Origin: Enterobacteria phage phiC600P9
Length of the DNA: 64,000 nucleotides
Sequence record: MZ681930.1
Direction: 5' to 3' (one strand)
The position numbers and the translations under genes were made by a program. Shown here piece after piece: positions 17,653-61,981 of the stretch. Below the pieces are notes generated by a model. It saw nothing but the letters and a program-made list of their open reading frames with translations, made no database searches and was not told where the DNA came from. The stretch's first letter is position 1, and each line of letters opens with the position of its first letter.

Positions 17653-17656
17653 CAAT

Positions 17657-17686
17657 GGGGACCTTTCGGTCCCCATATTTTTATTT
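17657..17686 (+). terminator. Hairpin terminator after gene 54
   Basis: GGGGACC-tttc-GGTCCCC followed by atatttttattt. Confidence 0.7.
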
Positions 17687-17971: not shown

Positions 17972-17977
17972 TTTGTG

Positions 17978-18033
17978 TTCCTCATGTTATGTCAGTAAGA
18001 CTATTATAACACAACATAAGGAACTTGTAAACT
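17978..18033 (-). promoter_or_regulatory. Early promoter (GTTTAC -35, TGnTATAAT extended -10) with 11-bp inverted repeat
   Basis: Minus strand GTTTACAAG-TTCCTTATGTT-gtgTTATAAT...AACATGAGGAA-cacaaaATG; the 3' arm covers the SD. Confidence 0.75.
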
Positions 18034-20089
18034 ACATTTTGAACTTTTTAGACATTCCGTTAATGTTAACCAAAGAAGCTAAGATTTGAGAAACTTCGTT
18101 TTCCTCTTCTTTTGATTCTTCTACAAGGAATTGATTAAATCCAGCCATTGGACGAACTTCACCAGTTTCCATTAAATGGTCTCCATCATATACTGATTCT
18201 TCTAATTGTTCAGAAGGAGGAACGATTGCACCTTCGATTAGATACTTGTTATAAGCAGTTTCTTTCATAAAGTACGTACTTACTTTATTAATCTTCAGTA
18301 AAATTCCACGCGGTAGAATAACTTCAGCTTCTGATGGAAATCCTGTTAAATGACCTGGAACGATAACTTTGATTCGCTCAGCTCCTTTAATTACCATACC
18401 CACTCTAGTTTCAGCATTTTCATTAGCGTATGTAGAATGACTACCCATATGCATCAAATCTTCTGCATCAACGGAACCTTCTCCTTCACCAGAAAATACT
18501 GCGCCGGAATCATCTAAAGCCATATAGTTTTTACCATGCTCGCCGAAGATATTTGGTTTAAGCGATGTAGATACGAAGTTCTTGAAATAGAACATTTTGT
18601 TTTCAATGTTATGACGCAAAGTTTTAAAGGTAACTTCTTGTCCACGGTAAAGTGTAGTTCCTGGAGGAAGAACTGAACCTTTAGCAAATGCAGAATCCAA
18701 CGTCTCGATGTGTTTAATAGCTCGTTCCATATATTCTTCGCGGGTAGAATCAGGTTTACCCAAAAGGAACGAGTTCATTTCAACATATGAATCTGCACAA
18801 TAATCTTCAATTACATCAGATTCAGCTTGAGTTAATCCTTTTGGAGTTACTTCGGTGCTTGCGTATTCATATGCCTGGGCAGCAGATTCATTAATCAATT
18901 TATAAATGCCATTCATTACAAATTGAATAATAGCTGTCTTTTCATCTGGCGTAGCTTTAGAACCTTTAACCAAATCATTGATAATTTTCTTAATAACATC
19001 AAAGCTATTAGAAATATTAATATCAGCAAGATCGCTTAAAATTTTATCAGTTTTATAATCAAAGAATTCTTTATTCTTTAAATATTCTTGAGAACCTTGA
19101 TATGTTATATCGCTCTGCAACTTGATGGATGGATCACGTAAACGTGCATGGGCTAATGCAATATGATTTCGGAAGTTTTCTAGTTCATAATCGCTAGATT
19201 TAAAACGAGAAGCACTTCTCATACCACCGATAGCTCCTTTGCTGAAGTTTGAACCAATCTGAATAACGCCAGAGTTCATTGGTCCTTCTGCTTTATATAC
19301 CGGAACTTTAGATTCAAACTCTTGATATTTCTTGGCAGCGAAGCTATCACCCTGAAGTGAAGCATCAACAGTAGAATATTGAGCTTGTGCTGCTAATCGA
19401 CGACTAATTTTAGTTTTCTGAATAACAGCTTGGTCCGTGCGCTTATCATTTTCTAAAGCAATAGAAGCAGCAACAGCGACAGCTTTAGGAACAGCATTAC
19501 CTGTTTTAACGTCTACATAAACATCACCAACCTTTGATTCAACTTTTGTGAATAACTCAGTTGAAATAGGAGGTACACCTGGAATGTCTTCTAAATTGGC
19601 ATTTTTACGGTAAACCATAATATATGCATACTTTTTATCATAGTCCCAGATTTCCTTTAAAAGAACATATCGACCTGCTCCTTTAGTACGTACTAAACGG
19701 TCAGCAATAACTTGCATTTGACGAGCAGCGCCATTTGTTTTACTCTTTAGTACACGGAATAAGCACGCGTCAATTTTATACTGTTTCATTGTTTGAAGAG
19801 CAGTATCAAAAACAGCATTAATGACGCCAATTGGATTTCCACCCAAGTTTCTAAGCTTAACCAGTGATAATTTCTCATTAACACCTATCATTACGATATG
19901 CATCATTTTATCGCCCGGCTTAACGTTTTTATTCGTATCACCGCCAGAGGTGTATGTACAAAATCTAAATCCAGGAAGCACGCTTTCTTCGCCGGCTTGA
20001 ATAGCAAAAATTTGTGGTATTTTATGCTTAGGATTTAAGTTAACAACCGGCGCCGAAGCGCCGTCAAATAATTCTGTAATAAGTTCCAT
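18032..20089 (-). CDS. Alt-family ADP-ribosyltransferase, second tandem paralogue
   Basis: 685 aa ORF; N-terminus MELITELFD and C-terminal ART motifs (YRGQ, FVSTSL, EAEVILPRG) shared with Alt; central region diverged. Confidence 0.85.
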   Translation of the reverse strand: MELITELFDGASAPVVNLNPKHKIPQIFAIQAGEESVLPGFRFCTYTSGGDTNKNVKPGDKMMHIVMIGVNEKLSLVKLRNLGGNPIGVINAVFDTALQTMKQYKIDACLFRVLKSKTNGAARQMQVIADRLVRTKGAGRYVLLKEIWDYDKKYAYIMVYRKNANLEDIPGVPPISTELFTKVESKVGDVYVDVKTGNAVPKAVAVAASIALENDKRTDQAVIQKTKISRRLAAQAQYSTVDASLQGDSFAAKKYQEFESKVPVYKAEGPMNSGVIQIGSNFSKGAIGGMRSASRFKSSDYELENFRNHIALAHARLRDPSIKLQSDITYQGSQEYLKNKEFFDYKTDKILSDLADINISNSFDVIKKIINDLVKGSKATPDEKTAIIQFVMNGIYKLINESAAQAYEYASTEVTPKGLTQAESDVIEDYCADSYVEMNSFLLGKPDSTREEYMERAIKHIETLDSAFAKGSVLPPGTTLYRGQEVTFKTLRHNIENKMFYFKNFVSTSLKPNIFGEHGKNYMALDDSGAVFSGEGEGSVDAEDLMHMGSHSTYANENAETRVGMVIKGAERIKVIVPGHLTGFPSEAEVILPRGILLKINKVSTYFMKETAYNKYLIEGAIVPPSEQLEESVYDGDHLMETGEVRPMAGFNQFLVEESKEEENEVSQILASLVNINGMSKKFKM

Positions 20090-26512: not shown

Positions 26513-26538
26513 TTTTATTCTCCGAGATGTTTAATTGC

Positions 26539-26579
26539 GGTACAGGTATATAATATCATATCCTGTACCAAAGTAAACA
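26539..26579 (-). promoter_or_regulatory. Early promoter with 8-bp inverted repeat (GGTACAGG/CCTGTACC) around the -10
   Basis: Minus strand GTTTACTTT-GGTACAGG-atatgaTATTATata-CCTGTACC. Confidence 0.65.
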
Positions 26580-26913: not shown

Positions 26914-26920
26914 TTTATTC

Positions 26921-26971
26921 TCCTTTGTTTGTGTAAGATAATACTATCACAAAGGAACCATACTGTAAACA
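26921..26971 (-). promoter_or_regulatory. Early promoter with inverted repeat whose 3' arm overlaps the SD
   Basis: Minus strand GTTTACAGTATGG-TTCCTTTGTG-atagtattatcttacac-AAACAAAGGAG-aataaaATG. Confidence 0.65.
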
Positions 26972-30094: not shown

Positions 30095-30142
30095 TTTGTT
30101 TTGGTAGAGCTATAATATCACAACTCTACCATAAAGTAAACC
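30095..30142 (-). promoter_or_regulatory. Early promoter with 7-bp inverted repeat (GGTAGAG/CTCTACC) around the -10
   Basis: Minus strand GTTTACTTTAT-GGTAGAG-ttgtgaTATTATag-CTCTACC-aaaacaaatgaggaaaacaaaATG. Confidence 0.65.
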
Positions 30143-32910: not shown

Positions 32911-33407
32911 AAAGTTTTAATAACCTCTACAATATCGTCTTGAGAAAGACCGTTAATTAAAATATGATGTTCAGCTGGAGATTTAGAAATTTTAAAGCAT
33001 GCCTCAACATCTTCTGCCATATCTGATGCACTACGATTTGGATTACTAATTCCAAGACGATGCTTTTCTGTCAAAGGATTAACGATGATGTAGCATTTAC
33101 AGTTATTGATATGAACATTAGGTTGAGTCTGATTAATGAACACTTCACAATCATATTTCGCAAGCTGATTTTCTAAAAAGACTTTCATCTCCTCGACTGC
33201 ATCAGGAAGCATATCACGGGCTTGCTCAAGACGACGATTTCGATATTCTTTAATGGTCGTTTTCCGCTTGACTTGCTTAGCTAAATCTTTCTTAAGATCA
33301 GTGATATATCCAACTCGACGATTTCCTTTGAATACAGAAATCCCATCTGTAGTATCACCGTATGCTTCAACGACCATTTCAGTAGTAATAAGCTGTAAAT
33401 CCATCAT
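32901..33407 (-). CDS. alc: Alc, inhibitor of host transcription
   Basis: 168 aa ORF; matches T4 Alc as recalled (MDLQLITTEMVVEAYGD...). Confidence 0.88.
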   Translation of the reverse strand: MMDLQLITTEMVVEAYGDTTDGISVFKGNRRVGYITDLKKDLAKQVKRKTTIKEYRNRRLEQARDMLPDAVEEMKVFLENQLAKYDCEVFINQTQPNVHINNCKCYIIVNPLTEKHRLGISNPNRSASDMAEDVEACFKISKSPAEHHILINGLSQDDIVEVIKTLCM

Positions 33408-33411
33408 AAAG

Positions 33412-33466
33412 TCCTCGTGTTATGTCAGTAAGACTACTGTAACACAACACGAGGGACTTGTAAACA
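33412..33466 (-). promoter_or_regulatory. Early promoter for alc with 9-bp inverted repeat covering the SD
   Basis: Minus strand GTTTACAAGTC-CCTCGTGTT-gtgttacagtagtcttactgacat-AACACGAGG-actttATG; near-duplicate of the 17978-18033 promoter. Confidence 0.7.
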
Positions 33467-41285: not shown

Positions 41286-41322
41286 AGGGTAATAGTATCA
41301 CACTACTACCCTGTTGTAAACT
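41286..41322 (-). promoter_or_regulatory. Early promoter with AGGGTA/TACCCT inverted repeat around the -10
   Basis: Minus strand GTTTACAAC-AGGGTA-gtagtgtgatactat-TACCCT-atcaactgaggagaataaaATG. Confidence 0.65.
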
Positions 41323-45200: not shown

Positions 45201-45245
45201 TTAGTGAGATTTCTATTATATACCATCCAAATCTTAAAGTAAACA
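45201..45245 (-). promoter_or_regulatory. Early promoter for rnh with AGATTT/AAATCT inverted repeat around the -10
   Basis: Minus strand GTTTACTTTA-AGATTT-ggatggtaTATAATag-AAATCT-cactaattgaacgaggttcatATG. Confidence 0.7.
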
Positions 45246-45289: not shown

Positions 45290-48200
45290 ATGGCCGAGAT
45301 TAAAAGAAAGTTCAGAGCAGAAGACGGTCTGGACGCAGGTGGCGATAAAATAATCAACGTAGCTTTAGCTGATCGTACCGTAGGAACTGACGGTGTTAAC
45401 GTTGATTACTTAATTCAAGAAAATACAGTTCAACAATATGATCCAACTCGTGGATATTTAAAAGATTTTGTAATCATTTATGATAACCGCTTTTGGGCTG
45501 CTATAAATGATATTCCAAAACCAGCAGGAGCTTTTAATAGCGGACGCTGGAGAGCATTACGTACCGATGCAAACTGGATTACGGTTTCATCTGGTTCATA
45601 TCAATTAAAATCTGGTGAAGCAATTTCGGTTAACACTGCAGCTGGAAATGACATTACGTTTACTTTACCGTCTTCTCCAATTGATGGTGATACTATCATT
45701 CTCCAAGATATTGGAGGAAAACCTGGAGTTAACCAAGTTTTAATTGTAGCTCCAGTGCAAAGTATTGTAAACTTTAGAGGTGAACAAGTACGTTCAGTAC
45801 TAATGACTCATCCAAAGTCACAGCTAGTTTTAATTTTTAGTAATCGTCTGTGGCAAATGTATGTTGCTGATTATAGTAGAGAAGCTATAGTTGTAACACC
45901 AGCGAATACTTATCAAGCGCAATCCAACGATTTTATCGTACGTAGATTTACTTCTGCTGCACCAATTAATGTTAAACTTCCAAGATTTGCTAATCATGGC
46001 GATATTATTAATTTCGTCGATTTAGATAAACTAAATCCGCTTTATCATACAATTGTTACTACATACGATGAAACGACTTCAATACAAGAAGTTGGAACTC
46101 ATTCCATTGAAGGCCGTACAACGATTGACGGTTTCTTGATGTTTGATGATAATGAGAAATTGTGGAGATTGTTTGACGGGGATAATAAAGCGCGTTTACG
46201 CATTATAACGACTAATTCTAATATTCGTCCAAATGAAGAAGTTATGGTATTTGGTGCGAATAACGGAACAGCTCAGACAATTGAACTTCAGCTTCCGACT
46301 GATATTTCTGTTGGTGATACTGTTAAAATTTCCATGAATTACATAAGAAAAGGACAAACAGTTAAAATCAAAGCTGCCGGTGAAGATAAAATTGCTTCTT
46401 CAGTTCAATTGCTGCAATTCCCAAAACGTTCAGAGTATCCGCCTGAAACTAAATGGGTGACTGTTCAAGAATTAGTTTTTAACGGTGAAACTAATTATGT
46501 TCCAGTTTTACAACTTGCTTATATAGAAGATTCTGATGGAAAATACTGGGTAGTACAGCAAAACGTTCCAACTGTAGAAAGAGTAGACTCTTTAAATGAT
46601 TCTACTAGAGCAAGATTAGGCGTAATTGCTTTAGCTACACAAGCTCAAGCTAATGTCGATTTAGAAAATTCTCCACAAAAAGAATTAGCAATTACTCCAG
46701 AAACATTAGCTAACCGTACTGCTACTGAAACTCGCAGAGGTATTGCAAGAATAGCAACTACTGCTCAAGTGAATCAGAACACCACATTCTCTTTTGCTGA
46801 TGATCTTATCATTACTCCTAAAAAGCTGAATGAAAGAACTGCTACAGAAACTCGTAGAGGTGTTGCTGAAATTGCTACGCAGCAGGAAACTAATGCAGGT
46901 ACTGATGATACTACAATCATCACTCCTAAAAAGCTTCAAGCTCGTCAAGGTTCTGAATCATTATCTGGTATTGTAACCTTTGTATCTACTGCAGGAGCTA
47001 CTCCAGCTTCTAGTCGTGAATTAAATGGTACAAACGTTTATAATAAAAACACTAATAATTTAGTTGTTTCGCCTAAAGCTTTGGATCAGTATAAAGCTAC
47101 TCCAACGCAACAAGGTGCAGTAATTTTAGCAGTTGAAAGTGAAGTAATTGCTGGACAAAGCCAAGAAGGATGGGCAAATGCGGTTGTAACGCCAGAAACG
47201 TTACATAAAAAGACATCAACTGATGCAAGAATTGGTTTAATTGAAATTGCTACGCAAAGTGAAGTTAATACAGGAACTGATTATACTCGTGCAGTCACTC
47301 CTAAAACTTTAAATGACCGTAGAGCAACTGAAAGTTTAAGTGGTATAGCTGAAATTGCTACACAAGTTGAATTCGACGCAGGCGTCGACGATACTCGTAT
47401 CTCTACACCATTAAAAATTAAAACTAGATTTAATAGTACTGATCGTACTTCTGTTGTTGCTCTATCTGGATTAGTTGAATCAGGAACTCTCTGGGACCAT
47501 TATACACTTAATATTCTTGAAGCAAATGAGACACAGCGTGGTACACTTCGTGTAGCTACACAGGTTGAAGCTGCTGCAGGAAAATTAGATAATGTTTTAA
47601 TAACTCCTAAAAAGCTTTTAGGTACTAAATCTACTGAAGCACAAGAAGGTGTTATTAAAGTTGCAACTCAGTCTGAAACTGTAACTGGAACGTCAGCAAA
47701 TACTGCTGTATCTCCAAAAAATTTAAAATGGATTGCGCAGAGTGAACCTACTTGGGCAGCTACTACTGCGATAAGAGGTTTTGTTAAAACTTCATCTGGT
47801 TCAATTACATTCGTTGGTAATGATACGGTAGGTTCAACACAGCCATTAGAATCATATGAGAAAAATAGCTATGCGGTATCACCATATGAATTAAACCGTG
47901 TATTAGCAAATTATTTGCCGTTAAAAGCAAAAGCTGCTGATACAAATTTATTGGATGGTCTAGATTCATCTCAGTTCATTCGTAGGGATATTGCACAGAC
48001 GGTTAATGGTTCACTAACCTTAACCCAACAAATGAATCTGAGTGCCCCTCTTGTATCATCTAGTACTGCTACGTTTGGTGGATCAGTTTCGGCAAATAGT
48101 ACATTAACTATTTCTAATACTGGAACGGCAACTCGTCTGATTTTTGAGAAAGGACCTCAGACTGGAACTAACCCAGCGCAGACGATGGCTATCAAAGTTT

Positions 48201-55642: not shown

Positions 55643-55688
55643 AACGTTTTATTCATTCCATTTAGTTGATATGGATATAGTACCAATA

Positions 55689-55904
55689 TTAGTGTTGATT
55701 GTAAACGGCCTTTTCTACGCTTTTAACGTAATTGGTATAGTCTTCCTGTTCATACGAGTGTAAGGCCAAGAACGGAACTAATAGTTCATTATAGACTAAA
55801 GCCTCACGCTCACGTTCGGCCTCTACTACGTTCTGAAGATTATGACTCATATCGTTCCTTATAACTATCAATGTAGTCCTGTATGTCGAAGAATGACATT
55901 TCAT
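55689..55904 (-). CDS. Hypothetical small protein
   Basis: 71 aa ORF overlapping the next ORF; the true start may be the internal Met. Confidence 0.4.
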   Translation of the reverse strand: MKCHSSTYRTTLIVIRNDMSHNLQNVVEAEREREALVYNELLVPFLALHSYEQEDYTNYVKSVEKAVYNQH

Positions 55905-58161: not shown

Positions 58162-58200
58162 ATCAGTAGTTGATAGTTGTATAGTACCACAGAATGCTTT
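58162..58200 (-). promoter_or_regulatory. Extended -10 early promoter for motA with ATTCTGT/ACAGAAT inverted repeat
   Basis: Minus strand AAAGCATTCTGTGGTACTATACAACTATCAACTACTGATACAGAAT; same 21-nt core as the element inside gene 32. Confidence 0.65.
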
Positions 58201-58201
58201 G

Positions 58202-58219
58202 GAGAGCCGAGGCTCTCCC
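58202..58219 (-). terminator. GGAGAGCC-UCGG-GCUCUCC hairpin
   Basis: Perfect 7-bp GC-rich stem between the small membrane ORF and the motA promoter. Confidence 0.55.
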
Positions 58220-58224
58220 TAAAA

Positions 58225-58374
58225 TTACTGCATGACTGTGATAACTGTCATGATAACGCGTTGAATGCCGAACGCAAGAAGACCTCCTGCTACGGCTGGA
58301 ACAACACCTAAACCCGCTAGTAAAATGCCGCCAGATACTAACGCCGCGCTTGTAATACCAATGAATGGACTCAT
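58225..58374 (-). CDS. Small hydrophobic membrane protein, translationally coupled to gene 52
   Basis: 49 aa ORF below the track cutoff: MSPFIGITSAALVSGGILLAGLGVVPAVAGGLLAFGIQRVIMTVITVMQ; ATGA overlap with the gene 52 stop. Confidence 0.6.
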   Translation of the reverse strand: MSPFIGITSAALVSGGILLAGLGVVPAVAGGLLAFGIQRVIMTVITVMQ

Positions 58375-61419: not shown

Positions 61420-61475
61420 CTGTTCCTCCGTAGTTGATAGGGTAATAATACCACAGAGGAACAGTCTTGTAAACA
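61420..61475 (-). promoter_or_regulatory. Early promoter with 9-bp inverted repeat covering the SD
   Basis: Minus strand GTTTACAAGA-CTGTTCCTC-tgtggtattattaccctatcaactacg-GAGGAACAG-aaaATG. Confidence 0.7.
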
Positions 61476-61939: not shown

Positions 61940-61981
61940 CTGATAGTTGTATAGTACCACGGTCCTTGTGGTATGTAAACC
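61940..61981 (-). promoter_or_regulatory. Early promoter (GTTTACAT + TGGTACTATAC extended -10)
   Basis: Minus strand GTTTACATACCACAAGGACCGTGGTACTATACAACTATCAGCTACGGAGGAG. Confidence 0.7.

Follow-up and report, generated by a model that had tools for sequence, protein, structure and literature searches.

In a 64,000-nucleotide (nt) stretch of Enterobacteria phage phiC600P9 (MZ681930.1), referred to here as the window, several early promoters are spanned by inverted repeats that place one arm in the spacer between the -35 and -10 elements. On balance, and with only slightly more confidence than doubt, we interpret these repeats as cis-encoded RNA hairpins across sigma-70-type early promoters. 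They fall into two classes. Class I comprises alt.-3, alc, ndd.4 and, weakly, 30.8: the -10 and the start site sit in a loop of 15-20 nt, the Shine-Dalgarno (SD) sequence of the next gene falls within the 3′ arm, and the hairpin would gate translation. Class II comprises cd.2, 30.7 and frd.1, where a compact hairpin of 12-14 pairs has the -10 at its centre, with a 3′ arm that reaches about -1 to +6 and does not include the SD; these elements resemble the published stem-loops called PeSLs. The analysis shows the structures, their excess over chance, their asymmetry between strands and their maintenance in evolution; from these we infer that transcripts reading through from upstream adopt such folds in the infected cell, with translation gated.

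The window comes from a Tequatrovirus (T4-like) genome and aligns colinearly with the T4 genome (NC_000866) between about 104.4 and 168.9 kb; several hundred T4-like phages match a 3-kb query around the finding at 95-99% identity. A first-pass annotation had listed ten early promoters, all of which are indeed present on the minus strand, where every feature described below lies unless stated otherwise. In T4 the genes downstream of them are alt.-3, 30.7, 30.8, cd.2, alc, frd.1, rnh, motA, ndd.4 and ndd.6. Nine of the ten have the form GTTTAC-N17/18-TAnnnT, and the motA site (58162-58200) has no -35 in this phage. A search blind to repeats, for a perfect GTTTAC, 17-18 nt and TAnnnT on both strands of the window, returned 11 minus-strand matches and no plus-strand match. 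These are the nine listed sites, the asiA promoter (55706) and a doubtful antisense site inside gene 34 (45772), where a perfect GTTTAC-N18-TACAAT (45743-45772) is conserved in T4 at 151291. A position weight matrix built from nine seed promoters was overfitted and found nothing new, so the set was restricted to perfect GTTTAC sites and weaker early promoters were left out. The start site (+1) was assumed to be the seventh nucleotide past the -10, which agrees with the promoter name Pe133295 given to the cd.2 promoter in the T4 record. An Rfam search of the whole window gave no match at the gathering score.

At each promoter, the RNA stretching from spacer to start codon was folded and compared with 200 dinucleotide shuffles. 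The hairpins at five sites are beyond doubt: alt.-3 (z -6.59), alc (-6.38), ndd.4 (-5.77), cd.2 (-5.70) and 30.7 (-5.44). The hairpin is moderate at frd.1 (-3.00) and marginal at 30.8 (-1.68), and motA (-0.90), ndd.6 (-0.67) and rnh (+0.63) are at chance level; the value for asiA is +0.22. A contiguous-stem score, in which Watson-Crick pairs count 1 and G·U pairs 0.5, was obtained for pairing between the spacer and the 50 nt following the -10. It reached 15 at alt.-3, 13 at ndd.4, 12.5 at alc, 9.5 at cd.2 and 8.5 at both 30.7 and 30.8, followed by motA (7.5), frd.1 and rnh (6 each), ndd.6 (5.5) and asiA (4), against a mean of 5.5 (standard deviation 1.15) in shuffles. Duplex energies rank the promoters in the same order. 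Scores of at least 8 occur at six promoters where 0.52 would be expected, and the maximum across 1000 shuffles was three, so shuffled controls do not reproduce the frequency of these repeats. Likewise, cognate 5′ and 3′ halves out-pair swapped halves in 20000 of 20000 permutations.

The excess extends to the whole T4 genome, where 36 intergenic consensus early promoters were scored in the same manner. Their duplex energies are bimodally distributed, with 14 of the 36 at -17 kcal/mol or below, a level reached by 0.5% of background positions and 1.35% of swapped pairs. Here too all 20000 permutations favoured cognate over swapped halves. In Karamvirus EcL8g, whose genome has 40% GC, the same threshold is reached at 6 of 28 consensus promoters and at 1% of background positions. 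Such figures bear directly on the possibility that the repeats are functionless, having arisen by chance or as a by-product of the promoter consensus and of cassette duplication. That explanation accommodates rnh, motA, ndd.6 and asiA, which sit at chance level, as well as the 6-mers quoted in the first-pass annotation, which are expected by chance, and the paralogy of the alt.-3/alc and ndd.4/nrdC.9 cassettes. It does not accommodate z-scores of -5.4 or below at five sites, the swap and background controls, the same enrichment in the Karamvirus genome or the independent alc arm sequences, with compensatory changes, found in five genera. The controls have largely refuted this explanation, and we consider it highly improbable.

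The proposed repeats are therefore real at some sites, as the z-scores, shuffles and swaps attest, and at chance level at motA, ndd.6 and rnh. Their dimensions had been understated: arms of 6-11 bp were claimed, and the stems at strong sites are longer, with 13-21 pairs including G·U, and often take in the -10 hexamer. A geometry common to all promoters, with the 3′ arm just past the start, had also been described. Its 5′ arm does lie in the spacer, but there are two classes, and in cd.2, 30.7 and frd.1 the 3′ arm occupies about -6 to +6 instead of a place downstream of the start. The quoted 6-mer AGATTT/AAATCT at rnh occurs as often as chance predicts; AGGGTA/TACCCT at frd.1 is likewise at chance level as a 6-mer and yet forms part of a 12-pair stem.

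At least four sites had been said to carry the SD in the 3′ arm, and alt.-3, alc, ndd.4 and, weakly, 30.8 bear this out. The alt.-3 promoter (18003-18032) is an exact GTTTAC-N18-TATAAT consensus, orthologous to T4 123093, with an inferred +1 at 17996. Its hairpin (17977-18024) pairs a 5′ arm formed by the spacer and part of the -10 (18024-18004) with a 3′ arm at 17998-17977 that contains the SD GAGGA (17983-17979); the AUG follows at 17971-17969. The minimum free energy (MFE) is -24.1 kcal/mol, and none of 200 shuffles is equally stable. At alc, where GTTTAC occupies 33465-33460, the hairpin (33409-33459; MFE -27.0) pairs the spacer CCCTCGTGTTGTGT with ACATAACACGAGG, and the SD GAGGA (33416-33412) and AUG (33407-33405) follow the same plan. 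The ndd.4 hairpin (61420-61464; MFE -23.2) has its 5′ arm at 61464-61450 (CUGUUCCUCUGUGGU) and its 3′ arm at 61434-61420, with the SD GGAGGA at 61429-61424 within it, the AUG at 61416-61414 and GTTTAC at 61474-61469. The weak 30.8 hairpin (26920-26957; UUCCUUUGU / ACAAAGGAG, SD included) has an MFE of -12.1, which 10 of 200 shuffles equal. A true intrinsic terminator, AAGGACTCCTTCGGGAGTCCTT followed by a T-run, lies at 27020-26999 directly upstream of the 30.8 promoter.

The class II hairpins are more compact. That at cd.2 (30102-30131; MFE -17.2) forms 13 pairs around the -10, UGGUAGAGUUGUG / UAUAGCUCUACCA, with the inferred +1 (30105) inside the 3′ arm and the SD outside the stem; its arms are conserved in RB14, 11B_SA_NWU and a20. 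The T4 record annotates 133300-133313 as the "inverted complement of previously reported sequence", a correction to the early promoter Pe133295. The corrected 14 nt (33301-33314 of locus L001; about 30110-30123 of the window) correspond in position to the cd.2 hairpin's loop and inner stem, and this palindrome may have contributed to the early T4 sequencing error. The 30.7 hairpin (26538-26570; MFE -16.1) pairs GGUACAGGAUAUGA with UAUAUACCUGUACC around the -10, leaving the SD about 15 nt further downstream. At frd.1 (41286-41312; MFE -15.2, equalled by 2 of 200 shuffles), the 12 pairs of AGGGUAGUAGUG / UACUAUUACCCU place the -10 hexamer in the 3′ arm.

The first-pass annotation had suggested that read-through transcripts fold the SD into the hairpin and that transcripts started locally expose it. 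For read-through RNA and for RNA beginning at the inferred +1, we predicted how likely the SD is to be unpaired. From the first RNA to the second, the values rise from 0.02 to 0.85 at alc, from 0.00 to 0.71 at ndd.4, from 0.03 to 0.74 at 30.8 and from 0.00 to 0.14 at alt.-3. They do not change at 30.7 (0.40 versus 0.39) or frd.1 (0.71 versus 0.70) and are the same in both RNAs at rnh, motA and asiA. At cd.2 the probability goes from 0.17 to 0.84 by way of a weaker outer helix, and at ndd.6 from 0.43 to 0.79. By these folding predictions the gating idea appears partly supported: it fits alt.-3, alc, ndd.4 and 30.8 and does not extend to 30.7, cd.2, frd.1, rnh, motA or ndd.6.

The proposed mechanism exploits the tolerance of the -35/-10 spacer for sequence change. 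The spacer would supply the 5′ arm, and the loop or the 3′ arm would hold the -10 and the start site. Because local transcription starts between the arms, the hairpin is possible only in RNA from an upstream promoter; transcripts from the local promoter would lack the 5′ arm and would form no hairpin. In class I the spacer would thus act as an anti-SD for the SD in the 3′ arm. Read-through early or middle transcripts would then be poorly translated at that gene, which would be expressed essentially from its own promoter, i.e., as an immediate-early gene only, with its dosage insulated from the summed output of upstream transcription. T4 early transcripts are known in general to extend into downstream genes (PMC2988021), and T4 promoters with strong hairpins have no terminator within 90 nt upstream. 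RNA structure also protects GGAG motifs from RegB (PMC2988021), so a masked SD would escape this nuclease as well.

Several T4 statistics agree with a role in SD masking, which class I sites may perform at about 20-30% of T4 early promoters. The SD core is paired with a probability of at least 0.9 to nucleotides preceding the start site at 10 of 35 promoter-led genes (29%), versus 6% for random upstream sequence, 3% of 100 non-promoter gene starts and 11% for swapped promoters. Anti-SD 4-mers occur in 28-29% of spacers and in about 10% of same-strand 18-mers (p = 0.0016 and 0.0046); the T4 values are 28% and 9.6% (p = 0.0016), and among 18-mers directly upstream of the T4 -35 only 1 of 36 has such a word. 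Strong T4 hairpins include the SD at 7 of 14 sites (motB.2, nrdC.9, regB, denV, alt.-3, alc and ndd.4).

Other observations weigh against the gating interpretation. The remaining 7 of the 14 strong T4 hairpins (motB, dmd, mobD.2, ipII, ipI, 30.7 and cd.2) are of class II, and since half of the strong hairpins make no contact with the SD, masking is not their general purpose. At a lax threshold of p >= 0.5, cognate T4 promoters do no better than swapped ones (37% versus 34%), and at p >= 0.9 the advantage of cognate promoters falls short of significance in EcL8g (p about 0.11). The 5′ untranslated regions (UTRs) are short, about 20-35 nt, so a long 3′ arm extending past +5 will often overlap the SD by geometry alone. 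Paralogy also means that promoters are not independent observations: the alt.-3 and alc cassettes are 91-94% identical over 54-57 bp, and ndd.4 and nrdC.9 are a further such pair. Finally, the alc hairpin is absent in Mosigvirus a20, a G-to-A change breaks one pair at a cd.2-type promoter in fPS-65, the T4 alt.-3 stem has one C·A mismatch, and the contig loci L023 and L029 have one stem mismatch each.

Comparison of the alc promoter across Tequatrovirus, Moonvirus, Karamvirus, Gelderlandvirus, Jiaodavirus and IMG/VR contigs shows that evolution has maintained the hairpin while replacing its sequence. Scanning IMG/VR for a pattern built on the alt.-3/alc loop yielded 8 loci from few genomes, which served as haplotypes and were too few for statistics; a scan anchored on the Alc protein gave 11 loci. 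The arms are CCTCGTGTT / AACAYGAGG in Tequatrovirus, CTCCATTTGGTT / AACCAAATGGAG in Moon (Moonvirus), EnA02 (Karamvirus) and SonariX, CTCCGTTTAGTT / AACTAAACGGAG in SEA1 (Gelderlandvirus) and ATCCTCATCA / TGATGAGGAT in UTI-K1 (Jiaodavirus). Thus five genera keep a 5′ arm in the spacer and a 3′ arm with the SD, with arms of three unrelated types, each paired in its own register (i+j = 65, 62 and 61 in alignment A1). Because the registers differ among groups, this is turnover and not simple covariation. A single consensus structure for all alc orthologues was rejected on the same ground, and pairs were formally counted only in the Moon/Karam/Gelderland group (alignment A2), in which 12 pairs are 97.2% paired and 2 pairs have changed on both sides, among six sequences only.

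Changes over shorter distances also preserve pairing. A variable pair in the alt.-3/alc stems of Tequatrovirus is A-U, G·U or G-C and never A·C. Between T4 and the window, the ndd.4 stem has exchanged C-G for U·G, U·G for C-G and G-C for G·U, all of which keep the pairing. Hairpin class is itself changeable: the 30.7 promoter is of class II in T4, in the window and in Mosigvirus a20, where the arms are conserved, and its orthologues in Moon and EcL8g have a class I hairpin, CTCCGTTGTAT/ATACAACGGAG, instead. In T4 the 5′ half of alt.-3 (123093) is identical to that of alc, AAGTCCCTCGTGTTGTGT, and the window has AAGTTCCTTATGTTGTGT at 18032. This identity suggests, from the sequences compared, a conversion between paralogous cassettes, which would have left the C·A mismatch in the T4 alt.-3 stem.

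The alc region of some contigs holds further arrangements. In the L024, L025 and L028 loci from IMG/VR, the -35 upstream of alc (GTGTAC) lies in the loop of a G+C-rich stem, GGGG...CCCC. This stem is followed by a T-rich stretch (TTCTTTCT), so that a terminator-like stem-loop overlaps the -35. In the L024 lineage the partner of the SD is GGTTCC, located between the -10 and +1, an alternative solution with the same predicted outcome.

Inverted repeats in promoters could also act purely as DNA: they might extrude cruciforms, form palindromes to which proteins bind, or be recombination sites at which cassettes are shuffled. PeSLs have been reported as sites of recombination and mini-circle formation (PMC2839356; PMC4122927). 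Homology with T4 breaks at the alt.-3 and motA promoters, and a few stems, such as those of ipII, denV and 30.7 in T4, are perfect palindromes that are equally stable on both strands. Strand asymmetry is pronounced overall. Among the 14 strong T4 stems, the sense RNA is more stable than the antisense in 12 and the reverse holds in none (means of -21.5 and -16.1 kcal/mol). A strand-symmetric search for stems with at least 8 Watson-Crick pairs counted 21 internal G·U pairs in T4 stems and 1 A·C. This excess of G·U together with the stability of the sense strand argues for a structure in the sense transcript and not a DNA palindrome. Sequence changes in the arms follow the RNA pathway A-U, G·U, G-C, and because arm sequences are promoter-specific, a common binding protein is implausible. 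We therefore give a purely DNA-level element very little credence.

A role of the hairpins in RNA has precedents. At e, soc, 49 and I-TevI of T4, the SD and/or AUG is locked in a helix; RNA from a promoter within the hairpin can be translated, and longer transcripts from further upstream give no product of that gene (Uzan and Miller 2010, PMC3014915). The first-pass annotation had named e, soc and I-TevI as such cases. Homing-endonuclease genes such as Aeh1 mobE are likewise subject to translational masking relieved by a promoter (PMC3014915). Class I sites share this anatomy, with the SD in the helix and local transcripts that begin between the arms, by the inferred +1, without the 5′ strand. 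The helix includes the SD at alt.-3, alc, ndd.4 and 30.8, and neither SD nor start codon at 30.7, frd.1, rnh and motA. In the T4 genes, however, the promoters are late (gp55, TATAAATA) and delay expression, whereas here they are sigma-70 early promoters of the form GTTTAC-N17/18-TAnnnT, and the 5′ arm lies inside the -35/-10 spacer. Moreover, the arrangement would involve a sizeable fraction of one promoter class instead of a handful of genes, with a putative function. Because the promoters are early and not late, the sites resemble this family without belonging to it in the narrow sense, and the predicted outcome is the reverse: translation only while the early promoter fires.

Reviews from 2010 place inhibitory structures in the initiation region only at e, soc, 49, I-TevI and some homing-endonuclease genes. 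A literature search found no earlier description of SD masking at early promoters, a mention in a T4 genome review or a gene paper of the 1980s being possible, and it found no mapped T4 start sites or RNA sequencing data. The first-pass annotation had supposed that the device was undescribed as a general property of early promoters. This seems to hold for SD gating, and not for the stem-loops as such, which the literature on PeSLs already describes (PMC2839356). The class I arrangement thus looks like a new variant of a known mechanism, with good support from sequence statistics and from comparison among phages, and the class II hairpins correspond to published PeSLs.

Arbiol et al. (2010; PMC2839356) described PeSLs in RB49 and phi1 as stem-loops lying mostly between the -35 and -10 or overlapping the -10, drawn with G-T pairs and read as terminators or attenuators and as recombination sites; one of them cut expression of a downstream lacZ to the same degree as rrnB T1 does. 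Comeau et al. (2014; PMC4122927) extended PeSLs to T4/PST and drew the stem-loops directly upstream of the promoter. The elements of the window share with these descriptions a strong early promoter, an AT-rich upstream region, a stem-loop with G·T pairs, and the SD and start codon of a small gene, repeated in hyperplastic regions. The stable stem-loop within or next to the promoter is present, with class II examples (cd.2, 30.7 and frd.1) overlapping the -10. The cassette is repeated, as the alt.-3/alc identity shows, and related phages differ by insertions and deletions or gene exchange at these cassettes, as seen here in the breaks with T4 at alt.-3 and motA. Two differences from the PeSLs as described there are that those are compact elements, whereas the class I 3′ arm is distant from the 5′ arm in the spacer, and that the hairpins here have no U-tracts. 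Neither SD-spacer pairing nor translation gating is proposed in the portions of PMC2839356 and PMC4122927 that were consulted.

All of the hairpins could be attenuators or stabilizers of the PeSL type that act on read-through transcription or RNA decay, by pausing or termination, or by blocking 3′ exonucleases or RNase E scanning, with the overlap of the SD incidental to short 5′ UTRs. The RB49 and phi1 stem-loops occupy the same position and include the one that lowers lacZ like rrnB T1, and the class II hairpins (7 of 14 in T4; cd.2, 30.7 and frd.1 here) leave out the SD. Hairpins and upstream intrinsic terminators tend to exclude each other, as alternative insulators would: in T4 a terminator lies within 90 nt upstream at 0 of 14 strong-hairpin promoters and 6 of 22 others, a trend only (p = 0.06), which is also the pattern expected if hairpins matter in read-through RNA. 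Both kinds of element are stem-loops in the intergenic space between early genes, but those spanning promoters often have long loops, and none in the window is the G+C-rich stem-loop followed by a U-run that defines an intrinsic terminator. No T-run lies 3′ of the window hairpins, and a terminator scan of 17-34 kb called none of them, so reading them as intrinsic terminators found no support there; attenuation without a U-tract is still compatible with this.

Three further results are harder to reconcile with a PeSL-type function for every hairpin. SD masking at p >= 0.9 is 5-10 times commoner than in natural and random controls, anti-SD words are enriched in spacers, and the alc SD stays the 3′ partner despite arm turnover in five genera, which would be hard to understand if any hairpin sufficed. 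We rate this alternative as a real but minority prospect, perhaps half as credible as the two-class reading in which class I gates translation. For class II itself, attenuation or pausing, protection of the 3′ ends of upstream mRNA and recombination are all candidate roles.

Masking in read-through RNA might also serve translational coupling, in which a ribosome finishing the upstream gene melts the hairpin so that the downstream gene is translated in proportion to the upstream one and is not silenced. Stop codons do lie close by. At alt.-3 the -35 GTTTAC shares its G with the TAG of the upstream Alt-like open reading frame (ORF), and at alc a TAA lies 3 nt 5′ of GTTTAC. The argument is one of geometry only, and geometry also provides the objections. 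A terminating ribosome unwinds or covers roughly 8-12 nt, and the anti-SD nucleotides lie about 13-21 nt downstream of the stop, beyond its reach; ndd.4 has no stop codon in the 25 nt examined upstream of its -35. Coupling is unlikely as judged from distances alone, and we assign it a small probability.

The alt.-3 cassette adjoins an intact 685-amino-acid Alt-like (ADP-ribosyltransferase) paralogue (18032-20089), at a place where T4 retains just the alt.-1 and alt.-2 remnants. Homology with T4 breaks, at this 1.7-kb gene, exactly at the alt.-3 promoter, and the arrangement looks like gene exchange mediated by PeSL-type cassettes. Between gene 54 and alt.-3, a stem-loop at 17655-17676 is terminator-like on both strands.

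The promoters without a significant hairpin differ among themselves. At motA only an extended -10 (TGTGGTACTAT) survives, and the repeat ATTCTGT/ACAGAAT cannot be distinguished from chance. The phage has lost 40 nt present in T4 (163666-163705), comprising the T-run of an upstream terminator and the GTTTAC -35. As a result the G+C-rich stem GGGAGAGCCTCGGCTCTCC now adjoins the spacer (58162-58225), and motA may depend on read-through in this phage. At ndd.6 (61940-61981) the only stem is the 7-pair CCGUGGU/GCUACGG, with a duplex energy of -11.0 that 10% of background positions reach. The repeat at rnh (45201-45245) has a duplex energy of -4.2, reached by 82% of background positions. The asiA promoter (55665-55706), a consensus site that the first-pass annotation had not listed, has no hairpin and provides a negative example within the window. 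A third type, besides classes I and II, is a mini-hairpin, CCACA-AGGA-TGTGG, which lies wholly within the spacer and presents an SD-like AGGA in its loop. It occurs at unrelated promoters: ndd.6 (61956-61974, CCAC...GTGG), T4 2458 and 50973, and alc in L016 (a20). At ndd.6 its folding energy is not significant.

If class I hairpins gate translation, then alt.-3, alc and ndd.4, and in T4 also regB, denV, motB.2 and nrdC.9, would yield protein only from RNA started at their own promoters. A change of spacer or a swap of early promoters in phage engineering could then mask or unmask the downstream gene, and PeSL stem-loops would gain a second function that can be tested. Because the arms must still pair, viable recombinants between promoter cassettes would be constrained. 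For T4-type phages in general, we advance more tentatively, and at somewhat less than even confidence, the idea that spacers serving as anti-SDs provide a genome-wide system of translational insulation for about one quarter of early genes, with arms that are continually turned over across the Tevenvirinae. Such a system would explain how nested early units avoid cumulative over-expression while leaving unterminated the transcription on which downstream genes rely. In T4, the end of early protein synthesis has been credited to promoter shut-off and RegB cleavage and is, according to reviews, incompletely understood. Masking of the SD from within the promoter would add a simple cis-acting layer to this process, by which these early proteins would cease to be made once the early promoters fall silent, despite the continued passage of read-through and middle transcripts across their genes.

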